The notes below the pieces were generated by a model. That model did not search any database, was not told the DNA's origin, and saw nothing but the letters and a program-made list of their open reading frames with translations. This document shows, one piece after another, positions 997 through 46,991 of a stretch of DNA of 64,000 bases. The stretch spans positions 1-64,000 of IMG/VR virus record IMGVR_UViG_2816332320_000003. The stretch is one strand, 5' to 3'. This DNA comes from a virus. Taxonomy: Duplodnaviria > Caudoviricetes. The translations under genes and the position numbers were made by a program. Every line of letters starts with the position of its first letter. Position 1 is the first letter of the stretch.

Positions 997-1563
997 TCAT
1001 TGTGTTTTCTGTTTAAAGAAATCCTCGAATCCCTCATGTTTACGTATGTATTCAATCACTTTATTTACATATGGCTTAAACTTCTTATTGTAAGGATTAA
1101 TACCAATGCTGCGATACGAATACATGTCTCTCTTGTCCTTGTAGTAACTTGCGGAAAGATAATATCTGTCTCCATAATTGTCGTTTCCTAGTGTCCTTAC
1201 CAGGATCTCAGTTTGCCTTGTTCCCTCATCCAACCAAATATAATGATGTAAGTGGAATGATCCGTCTTTTTCTAGATGAGGCTTTTTAAACTGATAAATG
1301 ACCCCATTTGAGTATTGATATTCAACATCTCGACTATGCATAAGACCACGGGGAATTTCAATTGGTTTACCATTGCTTTCAAAAGTATCTAATTCTGTTC
1401 GCTCTCTCTGTTCAATGGTTCGTAATTTAGAGTTTAACTGTCTAATTTCATTTGATACTCCTGATTTAGCCTGTCTTTTGCTCTTTTCATCAATGTCCAT
1501 TTGGTCTACCTGCTCACGAATTTTCTTTAGGTCTTCAATCTGTTTTAGTAATTGCTCTTTCAA
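997..1563 (-). CDS. hypothetical protein
   Basis: 188 aa ORF with RBS, N-terminal coiled coil. Confidence 0.7.
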   Translation of the reverse strand: MKEQLLKQIEDLKKIREQVDQMDIDEKSKRQAKSGVSNEIRQLNSKLRTIEQRERTELDTFESNGKPIEIPRGLMHSRDVEYQYSNGVIYQFKKPHLEKDGSFHLHHYIWLDEGTRQTEILVRTLGNDNYGDRYYLSASYYKDKRDMYSYRSIGINPYNKKFKPYVNKVIEYIRKHEGFEDFFKQKTQ

Positions 1564-1591
1564 ACATTCCTCTCCTTTTCAATGATAAATT

Positions 1592-1993
1592 TTATTTGTT
1601 TTCGCTTAAGTAATTAGCGACATCATCGAGTGACTTAAAATACTTTGCTCCATTTCTTTCAACTAATCTACCAACAGCGTCCAAATGTTTTAAATCTTGT
1701 TTCGTCATTGCAAGTTTGCCATTTGGCAATTCTTCATTGATTATACATACAATAGTTTCCTCAGGTCTTTTATTACTGTCGTCAACAACTTCTGCAATTG
1801 AATATGTGCTATATACTCTCGTAAGTGTATATAAAACGAAATCACATGTTTCTCTTTGTTTAATTTCTTCAACTTGACATTCAGGAGTCCAGTTTTTAAC
1901 AACTGGATTATAATATTTAATTTTCAATTTCGGAATTAACTTGTCTCTCCATTTACTGTTGGCGCAAGTGCCGCCCAAAAATACTTTTTTCAT
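1592..1993 (-). CDS. nucleoside 2-deoxyribosyltransferase-like protein
   Basis: KVFLGGT..WR, YNPVV..W, E...CD, SIAE motifs; GGAGG RBS before ATG 1993. Confidence 0.75.
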   Translation of the reverse strand: MKKVFLGGTCANSKWRDKLIPKLKIKYYNPVVKNWTPECQVEEIKQRETCDFVLYTLTRVYSTYSIAEVVDDSNKRPEETIVCIINEELPNGKLAMTKQDLKHLDAVGRLVERNGAKYFKSLDDVANYLSENK

Positions 1994-2020
1994 ATTCAAG
2001 CAATCCTCCACTAATATTTT

Positions 2021-2401
2021 CTAATCCAACTTCACTCTTACCTTAATACTTTTGAAATCATTTACTCGCTTCTGAATGCTCTTACTTCTATTATCATCCA
2101 ACTCATTTTTACTTTTCTTTTTAAAGTATTCCCTTATCACTTGTTCCACCCTTCGTTCTAATAATGAGGGATCATTTAGGTACTTTTCTACTTCATCACA
2201 ATAGTGATCGTAATCCTTGAACAAAATACTCATCTCATTAGTGTTATGTAAATTTAGGGTAGACACTAATGTTTCAGTTATTTTTGTACGAAAAAGCTTT
2301 CCTTCTTCCTTAAATTTCACAACCAGTTCTAGGCGTTCCCATCCACTTGAAATTGTTTCACCATCAATATAATGTAGATAAGCTTCTGTATCTACGAACA
2401 T
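2021..2401 (-). CDS. hypothetical protein
   Basis: ORF with RBS. Confidence 0.7.
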   Translation of the reverse strand: MFVDTEAYLHYIDGETISSGWERLELVVKFKEEGKLFRTKITETLVSTLNLHNTNEMSILFKDYDHYCDEVEKYLNDPSLLERRVEQVIREYFKKKSKNELDDNRSKSIQKRVNDFKSIKVRVKLD

Positions 2402-2418
2402 ATAACTTCCCCTTTTTT

Positions 2419-2871
2419 TTATTCTTTTGTTGTTGGAGCCAGATTGTATCTTTGAACCAAACTATCTATGTATTCATCACCTAAGTAGCCCCTTAATTCC
2501 TCTAGTTCTTCATATGTATAATCTGCAAACTCATCCCATTCGCCTGTTTCTTTCCAATTTTCAAAAGCTTTTTGTGGATCTTTAGTAAAGCACATCTCTG
2601 TATAATCTTGCATGAAACCGTCTGGGACGAATTTAAATGTCTTTACGATTTCAAGTAAGCATGCATCACACAAATCAAACCCCCATCTCTCTAGATCGAA
2701 TGCACTGCCATAACCGAAGCTAAGGTTTATATTTTGATAATTCTGCCCGAAACAATAATCTTCCTCAGTCTTGATGGATTCTTTTCCGCACTTATTACAA
2801 ATCAGAGATTCACTGACAACAATTTCTTTTTCTTCTGTGACGATTCTCTTTTCCGTTAATACTTTTTGCAT
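2419..2871 (-). CDS. hypothetical protein with two CxxC (Zn ribbon)
   Basis: CNKC and DLCDAC. Confidence 0.7.
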   Translation of the reverse strand: MQKVLTEKRIVTEEKEIVVSESLICNKCGKESIKTEEDYCFGQNYQNINLSFGYGSAFDLERWGFDLCDACLLEIVKTFKFVPDGFMQDYTEMCFTKDPQKAFENWKETGEWDEFADYTYEELEELRGYLGDEYIDSLVQRYNLAPTTKE

Positions 2872-2909
2872 GTTATCATCTCCTAATCAAACTAAGGTTT
2901 TATTTAGAA

Positions 2910-3251
2910 TTATGCAAAAGCCAAATTTACAACGTTGTTCGAATTTCCAATAAGCCTAACCACGAAACGATCAAATTTTGACTTATTTAACGAATAAGCT
3001 TTGTTCTTGCGCCAGTTCGTGTATACATGTTTCGATTCTGTGTATACAACAATTTTATTAATTTTATTTTCTAATAGCCAATCCATCATCTTATTAAATG
3101 CCATCATTTCTATTTCAGTACTGCTCCTTTTGCTATCTAATAGTTCATAATTTTGATATTCCAGATTGCCTTTTAAGTCAGTAATTGTAATCGATAACGT
3201 TGACTTTTTGTTAATTGACTGTGATAGACCATCAATATATGCTCGTAGCAT
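2910..3251 (-). CDS. RNase H-like domain protein, probably degenerate
   Basis: AYIDG, EMMA, VYTES, but NLA where active enzymes have ADxLA. Confidence 0.6.
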   Translation of the reverse strand: MLRAYIDGLSQSINKKSTLSITITDLKGNLEYQNYELLDSKRSSTEIEMMAFNKMMDWLLENKINKIVVYTESKHVYTNWRKNKAYSLNKSKFDRFVVRLIGNSNNVVNLAFA

Positions 3252-3252
3252 C

Positions 3253-3975
3253 CTATACCTCCTTTGCTTTAACGTTATACTCTTTTAATCCTTCATTCGT
3301 AATTTCCAAGCAATTCAATTGATGCCCATATGCAGCAGCTCCATCGATTCCAATCTTGTTTTCCCAGTACCAAATGTCAGCCTTGCCATGTAGATGAACG
3401 CATGGTGTGTGTCCGAATACTATTGTTTTATCTGTGTTCACCTTACCATTGTGAAACTCTTCTCTAATCCAAATCATCTCACTGTATGGAGTAAGCCTCC
3501 AGTTTTCATATGTGGGGTTTAATCCTGCGTGAACAAAGATATAGTCATCTTCTTCATGGTAGTATGGAAGCTCACTTAGGAAACTAATGTGGTGATTGAA
3601 ATTTTTAAGAATGAATCTCTTGGCTTTCACCGTATCGATTCCTGCATCAAAGAAGTCTAAGCCACAATAGGATTCGACTGTTTGTAACCCCCCATTCCTG
3701 AAGAAATTGAACTCGTTCATTCCATCGTTTGTAAGTAACCAGTCCAAGAACATTTTGTCATGATTGCCGACTAACGCGACCGCACCATATGTATTTACTA
3801 GTTCTATAACTTTATTCAATACCTGCTTGCTATATCGACCCCTGTCTACATAATCACCAAGGAGAATTAGTCTGTCTTGCGTTGGATCATACGCCACTTT
3901 CTCTAACATCTTGGTGAATAGATCATGGCACCCATGTAAATCACTCATGACAAGCATTCTTCGGTAAATACTCAA
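3253..3975 (-). CDS. metallophosphoesterase (Ser/Thr protein phosphatase family)
   Basis: SDLHG, GDYVDRG, GNHD, FVHAG, FGHTP, IDG motifs. Confidence 0.9.
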   Translation of the reverse strand: MSIYRRMLVMSDLHGCHDLFTKMLEKVAYDPTQDRLILLGDYVDRGRYSKQVLNKVIELVNTYGAVALVGNHDKMFLDWLLTNDGMNEFNFFRNGGLQTVESYCGLDFFDAGIDTVKAKRFILKNFNHHISFLSELPYYHEEDDYIFVHAGLNPTYENWRLTPYSEMIWIREEFHNGKVNTDKTIVFGHTPCVHLHGKADIWYWENKIGIDGAAAYGHQLNCLEITNEGLKEYNVKAKEV

Positions 3976-3987
3976 TCAATCATCTCC

Positions 3988-4266
3988 TTATTTGAGTACA
4001 TAGGTTGGAGTATTGTCATACTCATAATGATTTTCTTTGTCATGCCAACCTTTCTCATAACCCGCTATGTATCCATCATTAAAGCCATCTTCAGCTCCCT
4101 TTTCATACTGGTCTTGTGCATTTTTGAAATGGAGCATCTCTAGTAACAGACTTAAATCATTAGATGACAGTCCATCTTGACCACTATTTCTATCAAAAAG
4201 AAACCATCCAATCTTCCTCAAATCTTGTGATTCTGAGTTGATTAGTTCATTAATTTTACCTTGCAT
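3988..4266 (-). CDS. hypothetical protein with GxxxG repeats
   Basis: YEKGAEDGFNDGYIAGYEKG. Confidence 0.65.
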   Translation of the reverse strand: MQGKINELINSESQDLRKIGWFLFDRNSGQDGLSSNDLSLLLEMLHFKNAQDQYEKGAEDGFNDGYIAGYEKGWHDKENHYEYDNTPTYVLK

Positions 4267-4297
4267 AATAGCCTCCTTCCCCCATCAAATCAGCATT

Positions 4298-4651
4298 TTA
4301 TTCAAATAACTTCGGTTTAAAATACTGTGGTCTTTTATATCCATTAAAAAACATCTCTCTTTGGTAGCCATAAGGCAAGTCACTGAACACCTTGTCTTCT
4401 GTGACAGAATATCGATTCATAAGCTCGTGTAGAATTTCAATGCTTTCTTGCTTAGTCATTCTTTTATCAGTGTTCTTTAAACTTACCAATTGATATTCAC
4501 CATCATACTCTTTAGCAATTACAATGAATTTAGTTGGCTCTTTAATGCCTACATCCATACCAATGTAATAATTTGGTTTGAGGAATTTTTTGTATATGTG
4601 TAATTTAAAAGATTGCCATTTTCCTTTAAGCCATCTCAGAATCTTCTTCAT
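4298..4651 (-). CDS. hypothetical protein
   Basis: ORF with GGAGG RBS; stop inside palindrome arm. Confidence 0.7.
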   Translation of the reverse strand: MKKILRWLKGKWQSFKLHIYKKFLKPNYYIGMDVGIKEPTKFIVIAKEYDGEYQLVSLKNTDKRMTKQESIEILHELMNRYSVTEDKVFSDLPYGYQREMFFNGYKRPQYFKPKLFE

Positions 4652-4673
4652 TTACCCTCCAGAATGTATTCAT

Positions 4674-4964
4674 TTATTTTACCTTATTAAAAACCAACCT
4701 CTCTCCACTTACATGCATCTGCACTCGATCATTGGAACGAACTCTATATGTATGACTAAACTGTTGAGGAAACCTAATCTTATTATCCTTCACCAGAATG
4801 CCACTTCGTTTCTCATTAGTTTTAACTAAAGCAAAGTATCCAGTTCCAATTCTGAGTTTCAACCAATCACCATTATCAATGCACAACTCATCCATCATAA
4901 ATGTAGGAATCTTCATAAGCACGTTATAATCATCCCCTTTTAGATTTTGTTCAAATACTGTCAT
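4674..4964 (-). CDS. AbrB/MazE-like swapped-hairpin DNA-binding protein (tandem domains)
   Basis: MKIP..MDEL.I.NGD.L and IRFP......V..NDRV repeats. Confidence 0.55.
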   Translation of the reverse strand: MTVFEQNLKGDDYNVLMKIPTFMMDELCIDNGDWLKLRIGTGYFALVKTNEKRSGILVKDNKIRFPQQFSHTYRVRSNDRVQMHVSGERLVFNKVK

Positions 4965-5032
4965 TCAGTTTATAATCTACCCTCCTATTTTGATTAGTCA
5001 CATCAATTATTTTAGATTCATTCCGTTGAGCA

Positions 5033-5236
5033 TTATGTTACATTGCCTTCTTTGTTTAGGACTCCATACATTGCTCCAAACTTCTCAATACATAACTTCT
5101 TGAAGCAATCACTATCATCACAAACTATGTATTCGTCAAGCTGATATGTCTGATCACCTTCAAATAACACTTGTTTACATATGCATTTTGTAACAGGTAA
5201 TTCATTTAATTCTTCATATTCAAAATTATCCATCAT
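5033..5236 (-). CDS. small Cys-rich hypothetical protein
   Basis: ORF overlapping tdk stop. Confidence 0.6.
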   Translation of the reverse strand: MMDNFEYEELNELPVTKCICKQVLFEGDQTYQLDEYIVCDDSDCFKKLCIEKFGAMYGVLNKEGNVT

Positions 5237-5817
5237 TCATCACCTTCCATAGGAACCTTATGGTAGTGTCTCCTGCAAACAGATTTGTATTTGTCATTCA
5301 ATCCAATATCGATTACTTTGCCTGTGTAGACTGGTTTTCCATCTGTGAATTTAAGTATATGTGTGGCTTTTCTAGTGCAATATGAGCAAATTGTTTTTAT
5401 TTCCTCAACCTTATCTGCAACACACAATAGAGCATGACTGCCGAGGAATAACTGGTTGCGGAAATCCTTAAGCAGACCGTAACAGATAACAGGAATATTA
5501 AGCCAGTCAACAATCTCCGCTAATTGATTAACATGCTTACTTTCAAGGAATTGAACTTCATCGATTAGTACACAACTAGGAAGACTTTTTGCAACCAAAG
5601 TGTAAATATCAGTACTACTATGTATTGGAATAGCTTCACGACTAATACCAGCTCTTGAAGTAACCCTACCTACTCCAAATCTGTCATCTAATGCTGGCGT
5701 GAAGATCATGACTTTCTTACCTGACTCCTCATAGTTATGGGCTGAGGTCAATAATTGGAGAGACTTAGATGCTGACATTTGACCATACTTAAAAATCAGC
5801 TTACTTATAATATTCAC
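5233..5817 (-). CDS. tdk: thymidine kinase
   Basis: YGQMSASKS P-loop, SRAG, IDEVQF, YGL.KDF, CSYC..CRRH zinc lasso; start may be ATA near 5808. Confidence 0.95.
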   Translation of the reverse strand: MNIISKLIFKYGQMSASKSLQLLTSAHNYEESGKKVMIFTPALDDRFGVGRVTSRAGISREAIPIHSSTDIYTLVAKSLPSCVLIDEVQFLESKHVNQLAEIVDWLNIPVICYGLLKDFRNQLFLGSHALLCVADKVEEIKTICSYCTRKATHILKFTDGKPVYTGKVIDIGLNDKYKSVCRRHYHKVPMEGDE

Positions 5818-5833
5818 CTCTTATATTTTTAGA

Positions 5834-5860
5834 TTATATATTGACTTTCTACACTGCCAA
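5834..5860 (-). promoter_or_regulatory. putative sigma-A promoter upstream of tdk
   Basis: TTGGCA-N16-TATAAT on minus strand. Confidence 0.45.
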
Positions 5861-5913
5861 TAGTTCATAAGATATTTGACAGTGTTTATAAACAACGACT
5901 ATAATTTGTACCA

Positions 5914-5942
5914 GATAGGCAAGATTCGCGGTCTTGCCTATC
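5914..5942. terminator. stem-loop, possible terminator
   Basis: GATAGGCAAGA-7nt-TCTTGCCTATC; weak U tail. Confidence 0.5.
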
Positions 5943-5984
5943 ATTAGTGCTAAATAAAGTACTAATTTCCATGAATGGTTTGTC

Positions 5985-6263
5985 TTAATGGCAAGCCTTT
6001 TTTTCTTTTATAAGGACATAACTTGATTGCTCTGGTTCATCCTCATTGAATGTCCACTTTACCAAACCTTCATATGTATTTACTAGACCTTCGAAAACCT
6101 TACCTGTTGCTGCTCCATGTTGCTTAAGATCGTCAATTGTTGGTACTACTGGATTGGGATCTAGAGTAAGAGCGTACAGTTCATCGTCAGTAATTTCAGA
6201 CTCGCACAAATCGCCAGAATCATTAAAGTTGCAAAGATACAGATGAGTGACTTCGGTTTCCAT
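5985..6263 (-). CDS. hypothetical protein
   Basis: ORF with RBS. Confidence 0.65.
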   Translation of the reverse strand: METEVTHLYLCNFNDSGDLCESEITDDELYALTLDPNPVVPTIDDLKQHGAATGKVFEGLVNTYEGLVKWTFNEDEPEQSSYVLIKEKKACH

Positions 6264-6331
6264 TATTAGACCCCCTATTTTGTGGTGTGACTTGGTGTGG
6301 TTCGATTTGTTTTACATGACAAAGCACCTCC

Positions 6332-6958
6332 TTAAAATTTATTGCGAAATATTGTGGTTTTGTGTTCATTAAGCATATCCAAACAAAATTTCAGCCTATA
6401 AACTGCTTCAATTTCTTCATGAGACAGTCCTGATGGATCAAGAATTATCCTGTTTATAAATCTCCTTAGTTGCTTATCATCGATGTAGTCGTTAACCTTT
6501 TCTAAGATTGAGCGTATGTGGGAAATTTTCTGCCATGGTTGCATATTTCTATAACTGTGCTCTCTAACCCTATCTTCGTATCCTGTACTTGTCTCCCTAA
6601 TAACTCTTGAAGTTTTAATAGCCTCTTTCTCTCTTTGAATCCTAACGAACTCTTCCATATCAGGCAATTGTAAATCATTAACTTCTGCTAATAGTGTCAT
6701 TGTAGGATGAAACCTCTTATCGCCTTCTGAATCTGTTCGCAGAACAAATCCTTGCTTAACCTTGTCTAGGTTCCATAGTGCTGATCTATACTTGCCCTTA
6801 TTGTAATCATCAGGCTCTATATACTTTTCAAGTTCTTGCTCTGTGAACGATTTTAATGTGCTGAATGATAATCCTTGAGGATATTGAGCAAGAATTTTCA
6901 GTGCTACAATTCTTATTACTTCTGATGCTGTGTATTTTCTTGTCATCATATCCTCCAA
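6332..6958 (-). CDS. hypothetical protein, possible N-terminal winged helix; has own promoters
   Basis: 208 aa ORF; GGAGG RBS suggests start near 6946-6949. Confidence 0.7.
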   Translation of the reverse strand: MEDMMTRKYTASEVIRIVALKILAQYPQGLSFSTLKSFTEQELEKYIEPDDYNKGKYRSALWNLDKVKQGFVLRTDSEGDKRFHPTMTLLAEVNDLQLPDMEEFVRIQREKEAIKTSRVIRETSTGYEDRVREHSYRNMQPWQKISHIRSILEKVNDYIDDKQLRRFINRIILDPSGLSHEEIEAVYRLKFCLDMLNEHKTTIFRNKF

Positions 6959-44162: not shown

Positions 44163-44813
44163 TTACGAGTCAAAATGTTCATACTCAGATTTGTCCTTAT
44201 TTGTTTCTAATAAAGTAGTTTCATGTTGACTAAAGCCAGCGTTCTTTAATTGCAGCAATATCTTTGCCATTTCCTTTTGTGAAATGTCCATATTACGCTT
44301 TAAATATTTGCCAACTCTCATGATTACATGTACTATGTCTCTTGCTCTGCCTTCATTGAATACTAAAGTGTCACTTTCAAGAAAATCAAAATCACTTAAT
44401 GTATCAATCTTTCCATTGTTAAAGTAAAACATGTTGTGCTTGAAGTCGAATTGTCCTACTACCTCTTCTGGAGAACCAATCCAACGTGTAATAATTTGGT
44501 ATTTTCCAATTGATATTGCATTGTCAGTCACAAGCAGCGGATAGCTCTTGTAGATTCCACCACTCTTTGTTTTGGATTTATAACTAGAGAGTTGAAGGAA
44601 ATGTTCTCGCAACTTGTTCACTAGGCTTTCTGAGGTGACGAAAAAATCATAGTCCTTTGGTTCCTGATTGTGATACAGACTGTAGATACAACCTCCAGAA
44701 ATATAGGCATCCCGTTCAAACTCTTCTTTATGATCTTCAGGCATCAATTCCAAAAGCATTTTCTTTTCGAATTCAAGTCTAAGCTCTATGTATTTTAATT
44801 TATTTTGATTCAT
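44163..44813 (-). CDS. nucleotidyltransferase (CCA-adding/poly(A) polymerase head-like)
   Basis: ISGGCI.S......PKDYDFF, FDF, R..KY. Confidence 0.7.
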   Translation of the reverse strand: MNQNKLKYIELRLEFEKKMLLELMPEDHKEEFERDAYISGGCIYSLYHNQEPKDYDFFVTSESLVNKLREHFLQLSSYKSKTKSGGIYKSYPLLVTDNAISIGKYQIITRWIGSPEEVVGQFDFKHNMFYFNNGKIDTLSDFDFLESDTLVFNEGRARDIVHVIMRVGKYLKRNMDISQKEMAKILLQLKNAGFSQHETTLLETNKDKSEYEHFDS

Positions 44814-45029: not shown

Positions 45030-45066
45030 GGTTCAATCCTCCCCTTCTAATCAAATCAACTTTTTA

Positions 45067-45579
45067 TTAGATTTTCAATTTGTTGATCACGAGTGCACCA
45101 ATTCCTTGTAGTACACTCTTCACAATGACTTGCCCTGCTACTGCCATCGGCACAAACTCCCAAGGTACAAAGCCAGTTCCAATAGGTGACAGCCCGACAA
45201 TAACAAAGATTGTGCTATCCAATAATCCACTAACCAATCCACTAGTCAAAACTCGTGCAGAGAAAGAAGACGTCATTCGAGTGAAAATTTCAGTATCTGT
45301 AGTTTCAGATGCAATAAAGGAAATCGCTGATGCAAATACAATCCATAAAGTATCACCGAGTAACCACGACGAGAGCGCTGAGAGAACTAATGCTAATCCG
45401 ATTACTTGGTATGTCATTTTGCGTCCATATTCCCTTTGTACAAAATCACGCAACATGAAAGTTAAACCAATCAACAAAGTGCCCCAAGGAACTATAAATA
45501 CTCCAAAACTCAAAGGTGTAAAAGATGCAGTTACTACATTTGCCAAGATTATCGCAACGATATACAAAATGATATTCAT
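45067..45579 (-). CDS. VUT family (YhhQ/QPTR-like) queuosine-precursor transporter
   Basis: ILAN, G.TF.LRD.VQ..YG, AS.ISF..SE..D, S..LDS..F; multi-TM. Confidence 0.85.
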   Translation of the reverse strand: MNIILYIVAIILANVVTASFTPLSFGVFIVPWGTLLIGLTFMLRDFVQREYGRKMTYQVIGLALVLSALSSWLLGDTLWIVFASAISFIASETTDTEIFTRMTSSFSARVLTSGLVSGLLDSTIFVIVGLSPIGTGFVPWEFVPMAVAGQVIVKSVLQGIGALVINKLKI

Positions 45580-45589
45580 AAATCCACTC

Positions 45590-46399
45590 CTAAATTTTAT
45601 TTATTATTTGAAGTGCCTTCTTACTATTTTCAATTGTCAAATCGGCTGGATGATATTCTATGTATTTCTGCTCCTTCGTGTAGATCTTTTCCCAACGCTC
45701 TGCTTCAAGGTTAATAACTCTTCCCATTGTTGAGTTCAGTTCGAAGGAAGAAGTGTCGCATGAGAGATTTAATTCATCAACAACAATTCCAATTGTTCTT
45801 AATGTTTCAGTGATCTCTCTGACACCCTTTAGCACATCAAATGTACCAACACCAAATATGTGAATATCCTTAATTCCTGAGTTATGTATAAGGGGTAATC
45901 CAATTTTAAATGCATCCCACAATTTAAATTTAAGATCATTAATCTTCCCTGCTAGCGCTACTCCACCAAGTCCAATACAATCTTCTGGTGTTGCTATTTT
46001 TAATGTCTCATAAAGGCAATATATGTACTCTCTTGTTGTATCTCCCTGCACCATAAGTACAATTTGTCGTGGTCTCAACTCTTCTCGCTTACTAGCGAGA
46101 AACTTGTTACCATCTATCGTTTCACCTACATTAGACATGTAATCATATGCAACAATTCTCTCAGAGATAAAGCCCACTTTTTTCTCAAAGTCTAACTGTC
46201 TATGAAGTGCCTCTTTAAAGGTTAACCTAGAATCTTTTTCCCGATCTTGATAAGCCCCACTGTCCAATAATATCTTTGGGTCGGGGTTTTTCAGGGATAC
46301 TCTATATTTTGGATTAAGGCATATATAGTCACTCAAGAGGTCTGTATTTAGTTCTTTTGAGTTTAATTTATCATTGCATTTTGATAGGTATAATCTCAA
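45590..46399 (-). CDS. tRNA-guanine transglycosylase-like (DpdA-like) TIM-barrel protein
   Basis: LLDSGAYQ, AYD, VQG, IGLGG, IHIFGVG, SCDTSS match TGT-superfamily motifs. Confidence 0.75.
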   Translation of the reverse strand: MRLYLSKCNDKLNSKELNTDLLSDYICLNPKYRVSLKNPDPKILLDSGAYQDREKDSRLTFKEALHRQLDFEKKVGFISERIVAYDYMSNVGETIDGNKFLASKREELRPRQIVLMVQGDTTREYIYCLYETLKIATPEDCIGLGGVALAGKINDLKFKLWDAFKIGLPLIHNSGIKDIHIFGVGTFDVLKGVREITETLRTIGIVVDELNLSCDTSSFELNSTMGRVINLEAERWEKIYTKEQKYIEYHPADLTIENSKKALQIINKI

Positions 46400-46411
46400 C
46401 CTCTCACTCCC

Positions 46412-46825
46412 TTAAGCATTCTGTGTGTAAAACTGTAACTGTTGCCCAATTCCCATTCCTTTTAGTGGAACATTGCTCGCTATCCCCTCTTGCTCTAGGA
46501 GTGGGACGAGATATTTCCTGTATTTATCTCCAGCGTAGAAATCAACAATATCGATATTGTATTGCTGGAGTTGTTGCATCACTTTTGAAGCCCATTGCTT
46601 AATCTCTGAACTAGACATGTTGTTCAATGTAACATCATATGGCTCAATTTGGAGTGCTGGATCAAGTAGCCCATGTAATGCAGACAGGATGAACCACCTC
46701 TCATAATTTTGATTCTTGATGTAACTTGTAGCTTTAGTAAATAACGTACTCTCAGAATACATTTCTGCTGCTGCACATGTAAAATCTCTTTTGTTTTTAG
46801 AGCAACTAACTAATGCAATCTTCAT
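46412..46825 (-). CDS. DUF6884 (YaaA-related) protein
   Basis: LVSCSK.K, A.EMY.S.LF, ILSALHGL, I.PYD.TL, AG..Y, PL.G..IG.QL. Confidence 0.75.
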   Translation of the reverse strand: MKIALVSCSKNKRDFTCAAAEMYSESTLFTKATSYIKNQNYERWFILSALHGLLDPALQIEPYDVTLNNMSSSEIKQWASKVMQQLQQYNIDIVDFYAGDKYRKYLVPLLEQEGIASNVPLKGMGIGQQLQFYTQNA

Positions 46826-46868
46826 CTAGACTCCTCACCTTTCCTATAAAATAAATTTTTGATCGTAT

Positions 46869-46991
46869 TTATTTTTCTGCAACTTCTTCAAGAACAATCA
46901 TATATCTCAAGAACCTTTTCAAATCATCAATGCTTTCAGCACTTTCTAGCCATCCAAGCAGGGTGTCTTTATCTTTTTGTGTTAACGACAC
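46869..46991 (-). CDS. small hypothetical protein (40 aa)
   Basis: AAGGTG and GTG start; between palindromes 46846 and 47009. Confidence 0.5.
   Translation of the reverse strand: MSLTQKDKDTLLGWLESAESIDDLKRFLRYMIVLEEVAEK

Follow-up and report, generated by a model that had tools for sequence, protein, structure and literature searches.

A TGT-fold enzyme, a small DUF6884 protein and a VUT-family transporter form a probable salvage-type 7-deazaguanine DNA-modification module in a provirus

Modification of DNA with 7-deazaguanine bases is a major means by which phages counter the defences of their hosts. Here, we examined a cassette of three genes in the virus record IMGVR_UViG_2816332320_000003 from IMG/VR, encoding a DUF6884 protein, a protein resembling tRNA-guanine transglycosylases (TGT), and a transporter of the VUT/YhhQ family. 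The window that we analysed comprises the first 64 kb of this 163,172-bp record, which is classed as a provirus and estimated to be complete. Our data indicate that the three genes probably constitute a 7-deazaguanine DNA-modification system that obtains its base by salvage. The evidence lies in the TGT fold of the middle protein, its conserved catalytic constellation, the gene associations of its relatives, and the lack of synthesis genes for the modified base. A first-pass annotation, made from the window alone, had proposed a module that imports a deazapurine and exchanges it into DNA or tRNA, and this general interpretation is supported by what follows. Judged by DNA polymerase, the closest isolated relative is Paenibacillus phage Wanderer (58.8%), and a 6.6-Mb contig carries a protein identical to the DUF6884 protein of the cassette; we take the element to be a large prophage of a Paenibacillus-type host.

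The cassette consists of three minus-strand open reading frames (ORFs) with intergenic gaps of 12 and 10 nt, in agreement with the tight packing noted previously. The DUF6884 gene (46412..46825, minus strand) encodes 137 aa, and its product is described here, on the grounds of its match to PF21818, its fold and an invariant CxxxK motif, as a putative small protein of the DpdC or ArcS-core type. The middle gene (45590..46399, minus strand) encodes the 269-aa TGT-like protein, a predicted DpdA-like guanine transglycosylase judging from its AlphaFold2 (AF2) model and conserved motifs; its ORF starts at TTG, with a GGGAG/GAGAGG Shine-Dalgarno sequence ahead of the start. The third gene (45067..45579, minus strand) encodes a short 170-aa membrane transporter of the VUT/YhhQ family, with about 5-6 hydrophobic segments by hydropathy.

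The strongest evidence on the middle protein comes from its predicted structure. With an alignment of 34 homologues as input, AF2 produced a model with a pLDDT of 94.8 and a pTM of 0.92. The top 50 Foldseek matches of this model in the PDB are all TGT, ArcTGT or QTRT1 proteins (E about 2e-8), and VIA-align places 235 of its 269 residues on residues 40-361 of Z. mobilis TGT with a Z of 20.6 and a root-mean-square deviation of 2.7 Å. The best matches in BFVD are viral proteins labelled as queuine tRNA-ribosyltransferases, including those of phages phiST and nt-1, known as DpdA3 and DpdA2, respectively (PMC10516641, PMC6884629). In the ESM Atlas, the neighbours by language model, which we regard as a lead only, are viral clusters that in part carry PF23859 DpdA or PF01702 TGT. 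Hence the first-pass annotation, which had staked its reading on a TGT barrel in the predicted structure, drew support at the point where it was most exposed, and we have high confidence in the prediction that the 269-aa protein folds as a TGT-type (beta/alpha)8 barrel.

The residues expected of such an enzyme are also in place. All five TGT-superfamily motifs quoted in the first-pass annotation are found in the protein, namely DSGAYQ at position 46, VQG at 117, IGLGG at 142, HIFG at 180 and SCDTSS at 213. In an alignment of 102 family representatives with pairwise identities of at most 50%, the near-invariant positions are D46, S47, F/Y50, R58, Q68, Y85-D86, T94, Q118-G119, C128, G145-G146, H180, G183, S213 and D215. 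Counting ungapped representatives, three aspartates are kept almost without exception (D46 in 98 of 98, D86 in 101 of 101 and D215 in 99 of 101), and in the model the conserved residues, including these three, sit at the C-terminal ends of successive strands in the same order as in TGT and DpdA. DpdA and TGT share an Asp acting as general acid/base, a stacking aromatic residue four positions further on, a base-reading Asp and a nucleophilic Asp (PMC10164549), and the constellation conserved in the 269-aa family, three aspartates plus an aromatic residue four positions past the first, parallels this pattern. Past D215, the protein has no Cys and one His, and the alignment holds no invariant Cys/His cluster, so that the C-terminal zinc cluster of bacterial Tgt (CxCxxC...H) is missing, as had been reported.

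In sequence searches, the family behaved quite differently. The 269-aa protein gave no match in Pfam, PHROGs, NCBIfam or PADLOC, nor in the PDB sequences, where both the single sequence and the profile served as query. There was no match to Pfam TGT (PF01702) at E <= 0.1, nor in a six-frame search of the genome at E <= 1, and Pfam DpdA (PF23859) run on the genome yielded nothing even at E 10. The models of the described DpdA subfamilies (PF23859, DUF6610, which is the DpdA4 family, PADLOC DpdA, and the DpdA2 and DpdA3 PHROGs) all fail to match the protein. As controls, we used DpdA2 and DpdA3, which also miss Pfam TGT, yet match their own PHROGs (phrog_10773 and phrog_20335). Among 50,697 deposited phage genomes, tblastn found no match to the protein, and megablast of the region likewise found none. 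The comparison with TGT, DpdA and DpdA2 that had been suggested at the outset is therefore positive for structure and negative for sequence profiles. Five DpdA subfamilies have been described (PMC10516641); as no profile or phage genome matches the 269-aa protein, we read its family, which comprises about 158 clusters at 50% identity in 1.8 billion representative proteins, as a new DpdA-like subfamily outside these by sequence criteria.

The transporter belongs to Pfam Vut_1 (PF02592; 48.2 bits against a cut-off of 27.2) and matches phrog_4899 at E 2.8e-31. Its closest relatives in isolated phages are found in the Streptococcus phages MS1 and Dp-1 and in coliphages of the CAjan/Seurat type, where they are annotated as preQ0 transporters. 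The DNA of Dp-1 carries dPreQ1 and that of CAjan dPreQ0 (PMC8306585). Across the entire 163,172-bp record, we found no FolE/GTP cyclohydrolase I, QueC, PTPS/QueD, QueE/radical SAM, QueF or Pfam TGT, which extends the earlier statement that the window is free of queC, queD, queE and folE. Lacking any gene for preQ0 synthesis, the virus must draw on the pool of its host, import the base, or both, and the salvage-only reading thus stands for the whole record.

Gene associations in relatives provide a further line of evidence. We examined 28 loci of relatives, obtained from contig searches, IMG/VR and GTDB genomes, and then merged apparent duplicates. The full trio occurs at six merged loci including the window (the others being L002/L003/L016, L012, L014, L019 and L024), whereas seven distinct loci have the TGT-like gene with VUT only (L004, L005, L013, L017, L020, L021/L022 and L025) and three have it with DUF6884 only (L007, L015 and L018). 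Neither partner is found at L006, L026-L030, the ParB-fusion locus L008 and the split gene of L023. Co-occurrence of all three genes holds for a part of the family, the other loci keeping one partner or none. Besides the window, 12 distinct loci have VUT as the gene immediately after the TGT-like one. In the split case, the TGT-like gene lies in two ORFs (5001-5492 and 5566-5877), possibly reflecting a frameshift or a pseudogene.

Particularly informative is L011, a 151.8-kb phage contig with a TGT-like protein 70% identical to that of the window. Here, an island at 1138-6676 contains, in order, an N6/N4 DNA methylase, QueD, QueE, QueC, DUF6884, a 73-aa ORF, the TGT-like gene and Mom, and no transporter. 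In L011, queDEC thus takes the place of the transporter beside the same enzyme, which points to preQ0 or a close derivative as the substrate, and this arrangement is the best available evidence for a substrate of the preQ0 type. QueC was also sought in the records of four other relatives, which are fragments, and was not found. Together with the transporter relatives in phages of the Dp-1/MS1 and CAjan types, the queD-queE-queC island strengthens the proposed link of the cassette to deazapurines. Our best reading of these associations places the DpdA-like enzyme at the core of the module, with the base supplied by either the transporter or queDEC, and with DUF6884 as a finishing enzyme that is optional.

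In every phage locus, the neighbours of the TGT-like gene are genes of DNA replication and nucleotide metabolism, thymidylate synthase and dCMP deaminase among them. Two distant family members of 912-944 aa, P0117 and P0146 (locus L008), have the TGT-like domain fused to ParB_N and HTH_ParB, and by analogy such a fusion resembles DpdA and DpdB joined in one protein. A PAPS-reductase/DUF3440 gene also lies near the ParB fusion of L008. A sister clade of about 305 aa, with an insertion and a C-terminal tail and with neither DUF6884 nor VUT, occurs in Thermoplasmata and other archaea, in Dialister (L026) and in Lachnospiraceae (L029). In the archaeal L006, L027, L028 and L030, the sister-clade gene adjoins a helicase-sized ORF (about 770-894 aa) and one of about 391-395 aa, which could be typed, as UvrD and PD-(D/E)XK, in L006 only. 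Judging by these sequences, the sister clade might belong to a cellular modification-plus-nuclease system.

The first-pass annotation had left DUF6884 as an uncharacterised partner, a description that can now be refined. The 137-aa protein matches PF21818 over its full length (E 4.4e-45), and C8 and K12 (the CxxxK after strand 1) as well as S48 and A49 (the LSA of LSAxxG) are invariant in 45 homologues; the latter motif reads LSALHG in the protein itself. It matches the PADLOC candidate PDC-M57A (E 3.8e-38) and, weakly and over the core only, the PADLOC DpdC models PDLC02818 (E 2.1e-3) and PDLC02815 (E 2.4e-2), as well as a YaaA model. Searches of the PDB sequences with the DUF6884 profile gave matches at chance level only. 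DpdC carries a DUF6884 domain (PMC11888242), was earlier assigned to DUF328/YaaA (PMC5699537), and DUF6884 has been related by Pfam curators to YaaA and to DNA-lesion binding (PMC11701544). The AF2 model of the protein (pLDDT 96.2) is closest to AF0587 (2q07; Z 9.9, 116 residues) and YaaA (5caj; Z 9.8, 127 residues), the next fold scoring Z 6.8, and Foldseek concurs. AF0587 could be identified by sequence, in that the ArcS-core protein of phage nt-1 (PF17884, DUF5591) matches 2q07 at E 3.3e-8; the presence of an ArcS-core protein in Vibrio phage nt-1 is documented (PMC10516641). In the alignment with 2q07, the AF0587 motif PCTARKPY (PCxxxKPY) recalls the invariant CxxxK of DUF6884, and motif and fold together suggest that the strand-1 cysteines of the two Cys-x3-Lys motifs may coincide. 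What ArcS and DpdC both modify is the nitrile of preQ0 once this base is part of a nucleic acid.

DUF6884 also accompanies other DpdA-like enzymes. In Fusobacterium phage phiFN37 (OR492271, L040, 71539-73848), genes for a ParB-like protein, a TGT-like protein (267 aa, no Pfam match), DUF6884 and Vut_1 stand in a row, and we found no published description of this locus. In Halorubrum tailed virus 29 (HRTV-29, genus Dpdavirus), the DUF6884 gene overlaps the annotated DpdA gene (gp32-gp33); gp32 has been published as a peroxide-stress protein (PMC8651126). DUF6884 thus pairs recurrently with three different DpdA-like subfamilies. We also considered whether unannotated neighbours of DUF6884 in loci of Nostoc, Maledivibacter and Bacillus were TGT-like, and the family hidden Markov model (HMM) ruled this out. 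At two bacterial loci, L033 (4001-5824) and L034 (4001-7392), DUF6884 genes lie directly upstream of GIY-YIG or of ScoMcrA-N/HNH and Nmad3/HNH nucleases, and an OLD-like ATPase adjoins these genes in L034. These loci probably correspond to the PADLOC candidate PDC-M57 and might sense modified DNA.

Several observations bear on whether the base is exchanged in DNA or in tRNA, a point that had been left undecided. In bacteria, DpdA requires the ParB-like ATPase DpdB (PMC10164549), and the ParB_N and HTH_ParB fusions in distant family members therefore favour DNA. So do the lack of the zinc-containing C-terminal tRNA-binding part in the TGT-like protein, the replication and nucleotide-metabolism neighbours, and the stacking with a DNA methylase and Mom in L011. 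ARAGORN found no tRNA or tmRNA genes in the 163-kb record. Such an absence is unusual in phages this large, and it again fits DNA better. Of the two targets named earlier, DNA is thus much more likely, and tRNA much less so.

On this basis, we envisage the following mechanism. As its family membership suggests, the VUT protein would import a 7-deazaguanine base, most likely preQ0, and top up the queuosine-precursor pool of the host. The 269-aa enzyme, going by its fold and active site, would then act on double-stranded phage DNA in the manner of DpdA: D215 would attack C1' of deoxyguanosine, with D46 as general acid/base and D86 and Q118 reading the edge of the base, guanine would depart, and preQ0 would be attached in its place. 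Finally, with preQ0 in place, its nitrile may become the target of DUF6884, which would most likely carry out the reaction of DpdC, hydration to the amide (dADG). Modified in this way, the DNA would withstand the restriction enzymes of the Paenibacillus-type host, along with its other defences directed at DNA. Given that the module is of this kind, we place the specific DpdC-like role of DUF6884 at somewhat under one half.

A number of findings weigh against this mechanism. When the family profile was aligned with single sequences, hhalign probabilities ranged from 0.7 to 18% (E. coli TGT, DpdA3, DpdA2, phiFN37 and HRTV-29), with 18% for nt-1 DpdA2, 6% for phiST DpdA3 and at most 4.5% for the TGT-like protein of phiFN37 and the DpdA of HRTV-29. 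The short alignments do bring QG, H-x-F/L-G and S-x-D-S/T-S into register, best with DpdA2, which we treat as hints only. Sequence homology to TGT and DpdA is thus not significant, and the mapping of residues rests on the fold and the order of motifs; that of the aspartates in particular uses motif order and low-confidence hhalign alignments rather than an inspected superposition. No ParB_N domain was found in the genome, and a DpdB-like helper of the kind needed by the bacterial DpdA would, if required, be absent. Classification as a provirus means that host DNA may be modified too. Between DUF6884 and the ArcS core of nt-1, hhalign detected no similarity, and DUF6884 homologues of bacterial islands adjoin HNH or GIY-YIG nucleases, others occurring as fusions in mycobacteriophages with no recognisable DpdA nearby. 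Finally, the transporter scores below the NCBIfam equivalog cut-offs (TIGR00697, 42.6 against 50.95 bits; NF008406, 10.8 against 252) and matches E. coli YhhQ by BLASTP at E 0.008 only.

Some of these points would be accommodated if enzyme and importer worked as proposed while DUF6884 had another task, either as an accessory for DNA binding, base flipping or targeting that stands in for DpdB, or as an enzyme forming another product, e.g. an amidine or lysine adduct of the kind made by ArcS. Published work ascribes DNA binding and a positively charged cleft to the DUF6884/YaaA fold, and pull-downs with DNA lesions recovered the B. subtilis protein YfjM (PMC11701544). An accessory role would also suit the tight coupling or overlap of the DUF6884 and TGT-like genes, the absence of DpdB/ParB from the genome, the pairing of DUF6884 with nucleases elsewhere and the weakness of its PADLOC DpdC matches. 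However, the invariant Cys and Lys of CxxxK suggest catalysis over mere binding, DpdC works independently of DpdA and DpdB (PMC10164549), and the seven distinct loci that keep the TGT-like gene and VUT without DUF6884 show that the transglycosylase does not need this partner. We consider such a role unlikely, though well worth bearing in mind. Considerably less probable is that the target is host tRNA, with the cassette boosting the queuosine pathway or altering exchange at G34 or G15 and thereby tuning translation during infection. Fold and catalytic residues are indeed common to tRNA-guanine transglycosylases, VUT/YhhQ proteins normally serve queuosine salvage for tRNA, and some phages have preQ0 genes without DpdA (PMC6884629). 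Nevertheless, the TGT-like protein has no zinc subdomain and no PUA or other C-terminal tRNA-binding domain, its family includes ParB fusions, its partner domain is reported in the DNA-acting DpdC (PMC11888242), and in L011 its gene shares an island with those of a DNA methylase and Mom. The position of the cassette within a replication module, in a phage without tRNA genes, points the same way, and, according to published work, all phages with 7-deazaguanine in their DNA encode DpdA, a gene taken as the signature of this kind of modification (PMC10516641).

A role in prophage defence or self-marking, in which the cassette would be either the modification half of a Dpd-like system marking the DNA of the lysogen or a nucleobase-protein conjugation module akin to type IV CBASS (cyclic oligonucleotide-based antiphage signalling system), would find some footing in the provirus classification, in the identical DUF6884 protein on the 6.6-Mb contig and in the match of DUF6884 to PDC-M57A. 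The sister clade that stands without both partners beside helicase-sized and ~391-395-aa ORFs (L006, L027, L028 and L030) could be read likewise. Against this, helicase or nuclease genes of the restriction type are absent next to the cassette, which lies between replication genes transcribed with the lytic programme, and the same module occurs in non-integrated phage contigs and in phage phiFN37. The CBASS-type role raised by the first-pass annotation is unsupported, as the record holds no QueC-like gene and the TGT-like protein has no PADLOC match, no separate search with a cyclase (CD-NTase) model having been made. We therefore judge a defence function to be very improbable, and retain salvage-based modification of phage DNA as the probable function of the cassette. 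A bolder version of this proposal, which we put forward tentatively and regard as possible yet doubtful, is that the 269-aa protein founds a sixth DpdA subfamily, made up of uncultivated Bacillota phages and prophages plus the cellular sister clade, and that the small DUF6884 proteins are the long-missing finishing enzymes of phages, relatives of the ArcS core that would activate the preQ0 nitrile by Cys-x3-Lys to give dADG or an undescribed derivative. If this is true, DUF6884 genes beside bacterial HNH or GIY-YIG nucleases could sense phage DNA modified with 7-deazaguanine.

The cassette had also been described as bounded exactly by perfect palindromes, and this did not hold. A repeat scan located a 10-nt inverted repeat with one mismatch that overlaps the transporter stop (45046..45071), and a perfect 9-nt inverted repeat, purely A/T with a 10-nt loop, upstream of the cassette (46848..46875). 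RNA folding gave -2.9 and -2.5 kcal/mol, respectively, with z = 0.11 against shuffles in each case, so that we rejected both as hairpins; they are probably not functional. Several inverted repeats of equal quality occur within the cassette genes, and a promoter and terminator scan showed no excess. With repeats this weak and no excess of signals, the cassette is not a specially delimited unit and rather forms part of a replication transcription block, and the repeat boundaries carry no weight for its interpretation. That block runs leftward over a long distance and includes genes for a Sak4-like annealing protein, a DnaB-like helicase, a primase, an exonuclease, a DNA polymerase and a ribonucleotide reductase, and GC content is even, at about 35-38%. 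Just downstream of the cassette, a 216-aa protein (44163-44813, minus strand) matches the phage nucleotidyltransferase PHROGs phrog_4400 and phrog_1614 and, weakly, a poly(A) polymerase head domain, and its gene is not kept beside the cassette in relatives. Upstream, genes for a CoiA nuclease-like protein and a YpsA SLOG-family protein adjoin each other (50674-52098 and 52150-52797, both minus strand). The early region of the phage encodes a 379-aa protein (54270-55409, minus strand) with an AID/APOBEC-like cytidine deaminase domain (SNAD4 at 2e-13, NAD1 and APOBEC families), which might provide a further nucleic-acid-editing or nucleotide-modifying function, and a TnpB-type protein (57906-59117, minus strand) with OrfB_IS605 and a Cas12f1-like TNB domain lies within the phage genome as well.

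Among known systems, the closest likeness is to the DpdA proteins of phages and bacteria (DpdA1-DpdA4 and bDpdA), which share with the window enzyme the TGT (beta/alpha)8 fold, three aspartates and an aromatic residue four positions past the first. Family contexts agree as well, in that both occur among phage DNA-metabolism genes, together with preQ0 genes or a YhhQ-type transporter, and are linked to ParB (DpdB-like) in distant members. The window protein differs in having Gln at the base-reading position where DpdA has His, in lacking the large Ins8 insertion of bDpdA, and in the absence of DpdB from its genome. Like the window protein, DpdC, which converts preQ0-DNA to ADG-DNA, has a DUF6884 domain (PMC11888242), adjoins a DpdA-type gene and is optional in dpd islands; its PADLOC models span about 312-319 positions, as opposed to 137 aa and weak matches for the window protein, and we found no published description of a phage DpdC. 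ArcS, whose core is represented by AF0587 and by proteins of phages nt-1 and STSV2, shares with DUF6884 a strand followed by Cys-x3-Lys, and it transfers lysine to tRNA-preQ0; sequence similarity between the two is not detectable. The transporter resembles YhhQ and the preQ0 transporters of CAjan, Seurat and Dp-1 in belonging to the Vut_1 family, and the latter in being a short phage-encoded form, such transporters being found in phages whose DNA contains dPreQ0 or dPreQ1; E. coli YhhQ is longer (221 aa) and the window transporter falls below the equivalog cut-offs. From the Dpd restriction-modification system, which has the ParB-like ATPase DpdB and the restriction genes dpdD-K, the cassette is set apart by the lack of ParB_N in the genome and of helicase or PLD genes beside it. 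Type IV CBASS (Cap9/Cap10) differs in that its QueC-like Cap9 is not found in the 163 kb, and the typeable neighbours of the cassette belong to replication and nucleotide metabolism. Phage phiFN37 has the same gene set and HRTV-29 the DUF6884 and DpdA pair. The transglycosylases of these two viruses, however, fall into other subfamilies; a ParB-like gene is present in addition in phiFN37, and the gene order differs from that of the window.

Phage DpdA, phage homologues of YhhQ, and "DpdA-only" phages that rely on the preQ0 of the host are already known (PMC6884629). New here are a DpdA-like clade that current profiles do not detect and that isolated phages lack, the modular combination of its enzyme with either a transporter or queDEC, and the recurrent viral pairing with what appears to be a mini-DpdC, linked by predicted structure to the ArcS core. 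Because the clade escapes every current HMM, surveys undercount modified phage genomes, notably those of Paenibacillus- and Bacillus-type phages. With transporter and queDEC alternating, the clade offers a clear natural experiment on how the precursor is supplied. The phage route to dADG has been called poorly explained (PMC8306585), and the DUF6884 pairing offers a concrete candidate for it, with Cys-x3-Lys acting on a nitrile as a testable catalytic hypothesis for this domain of unknown function, which is widespread and includes YfjM. Taken together, the cassette most likely represents a new branch of a known anti-restriction strategy.

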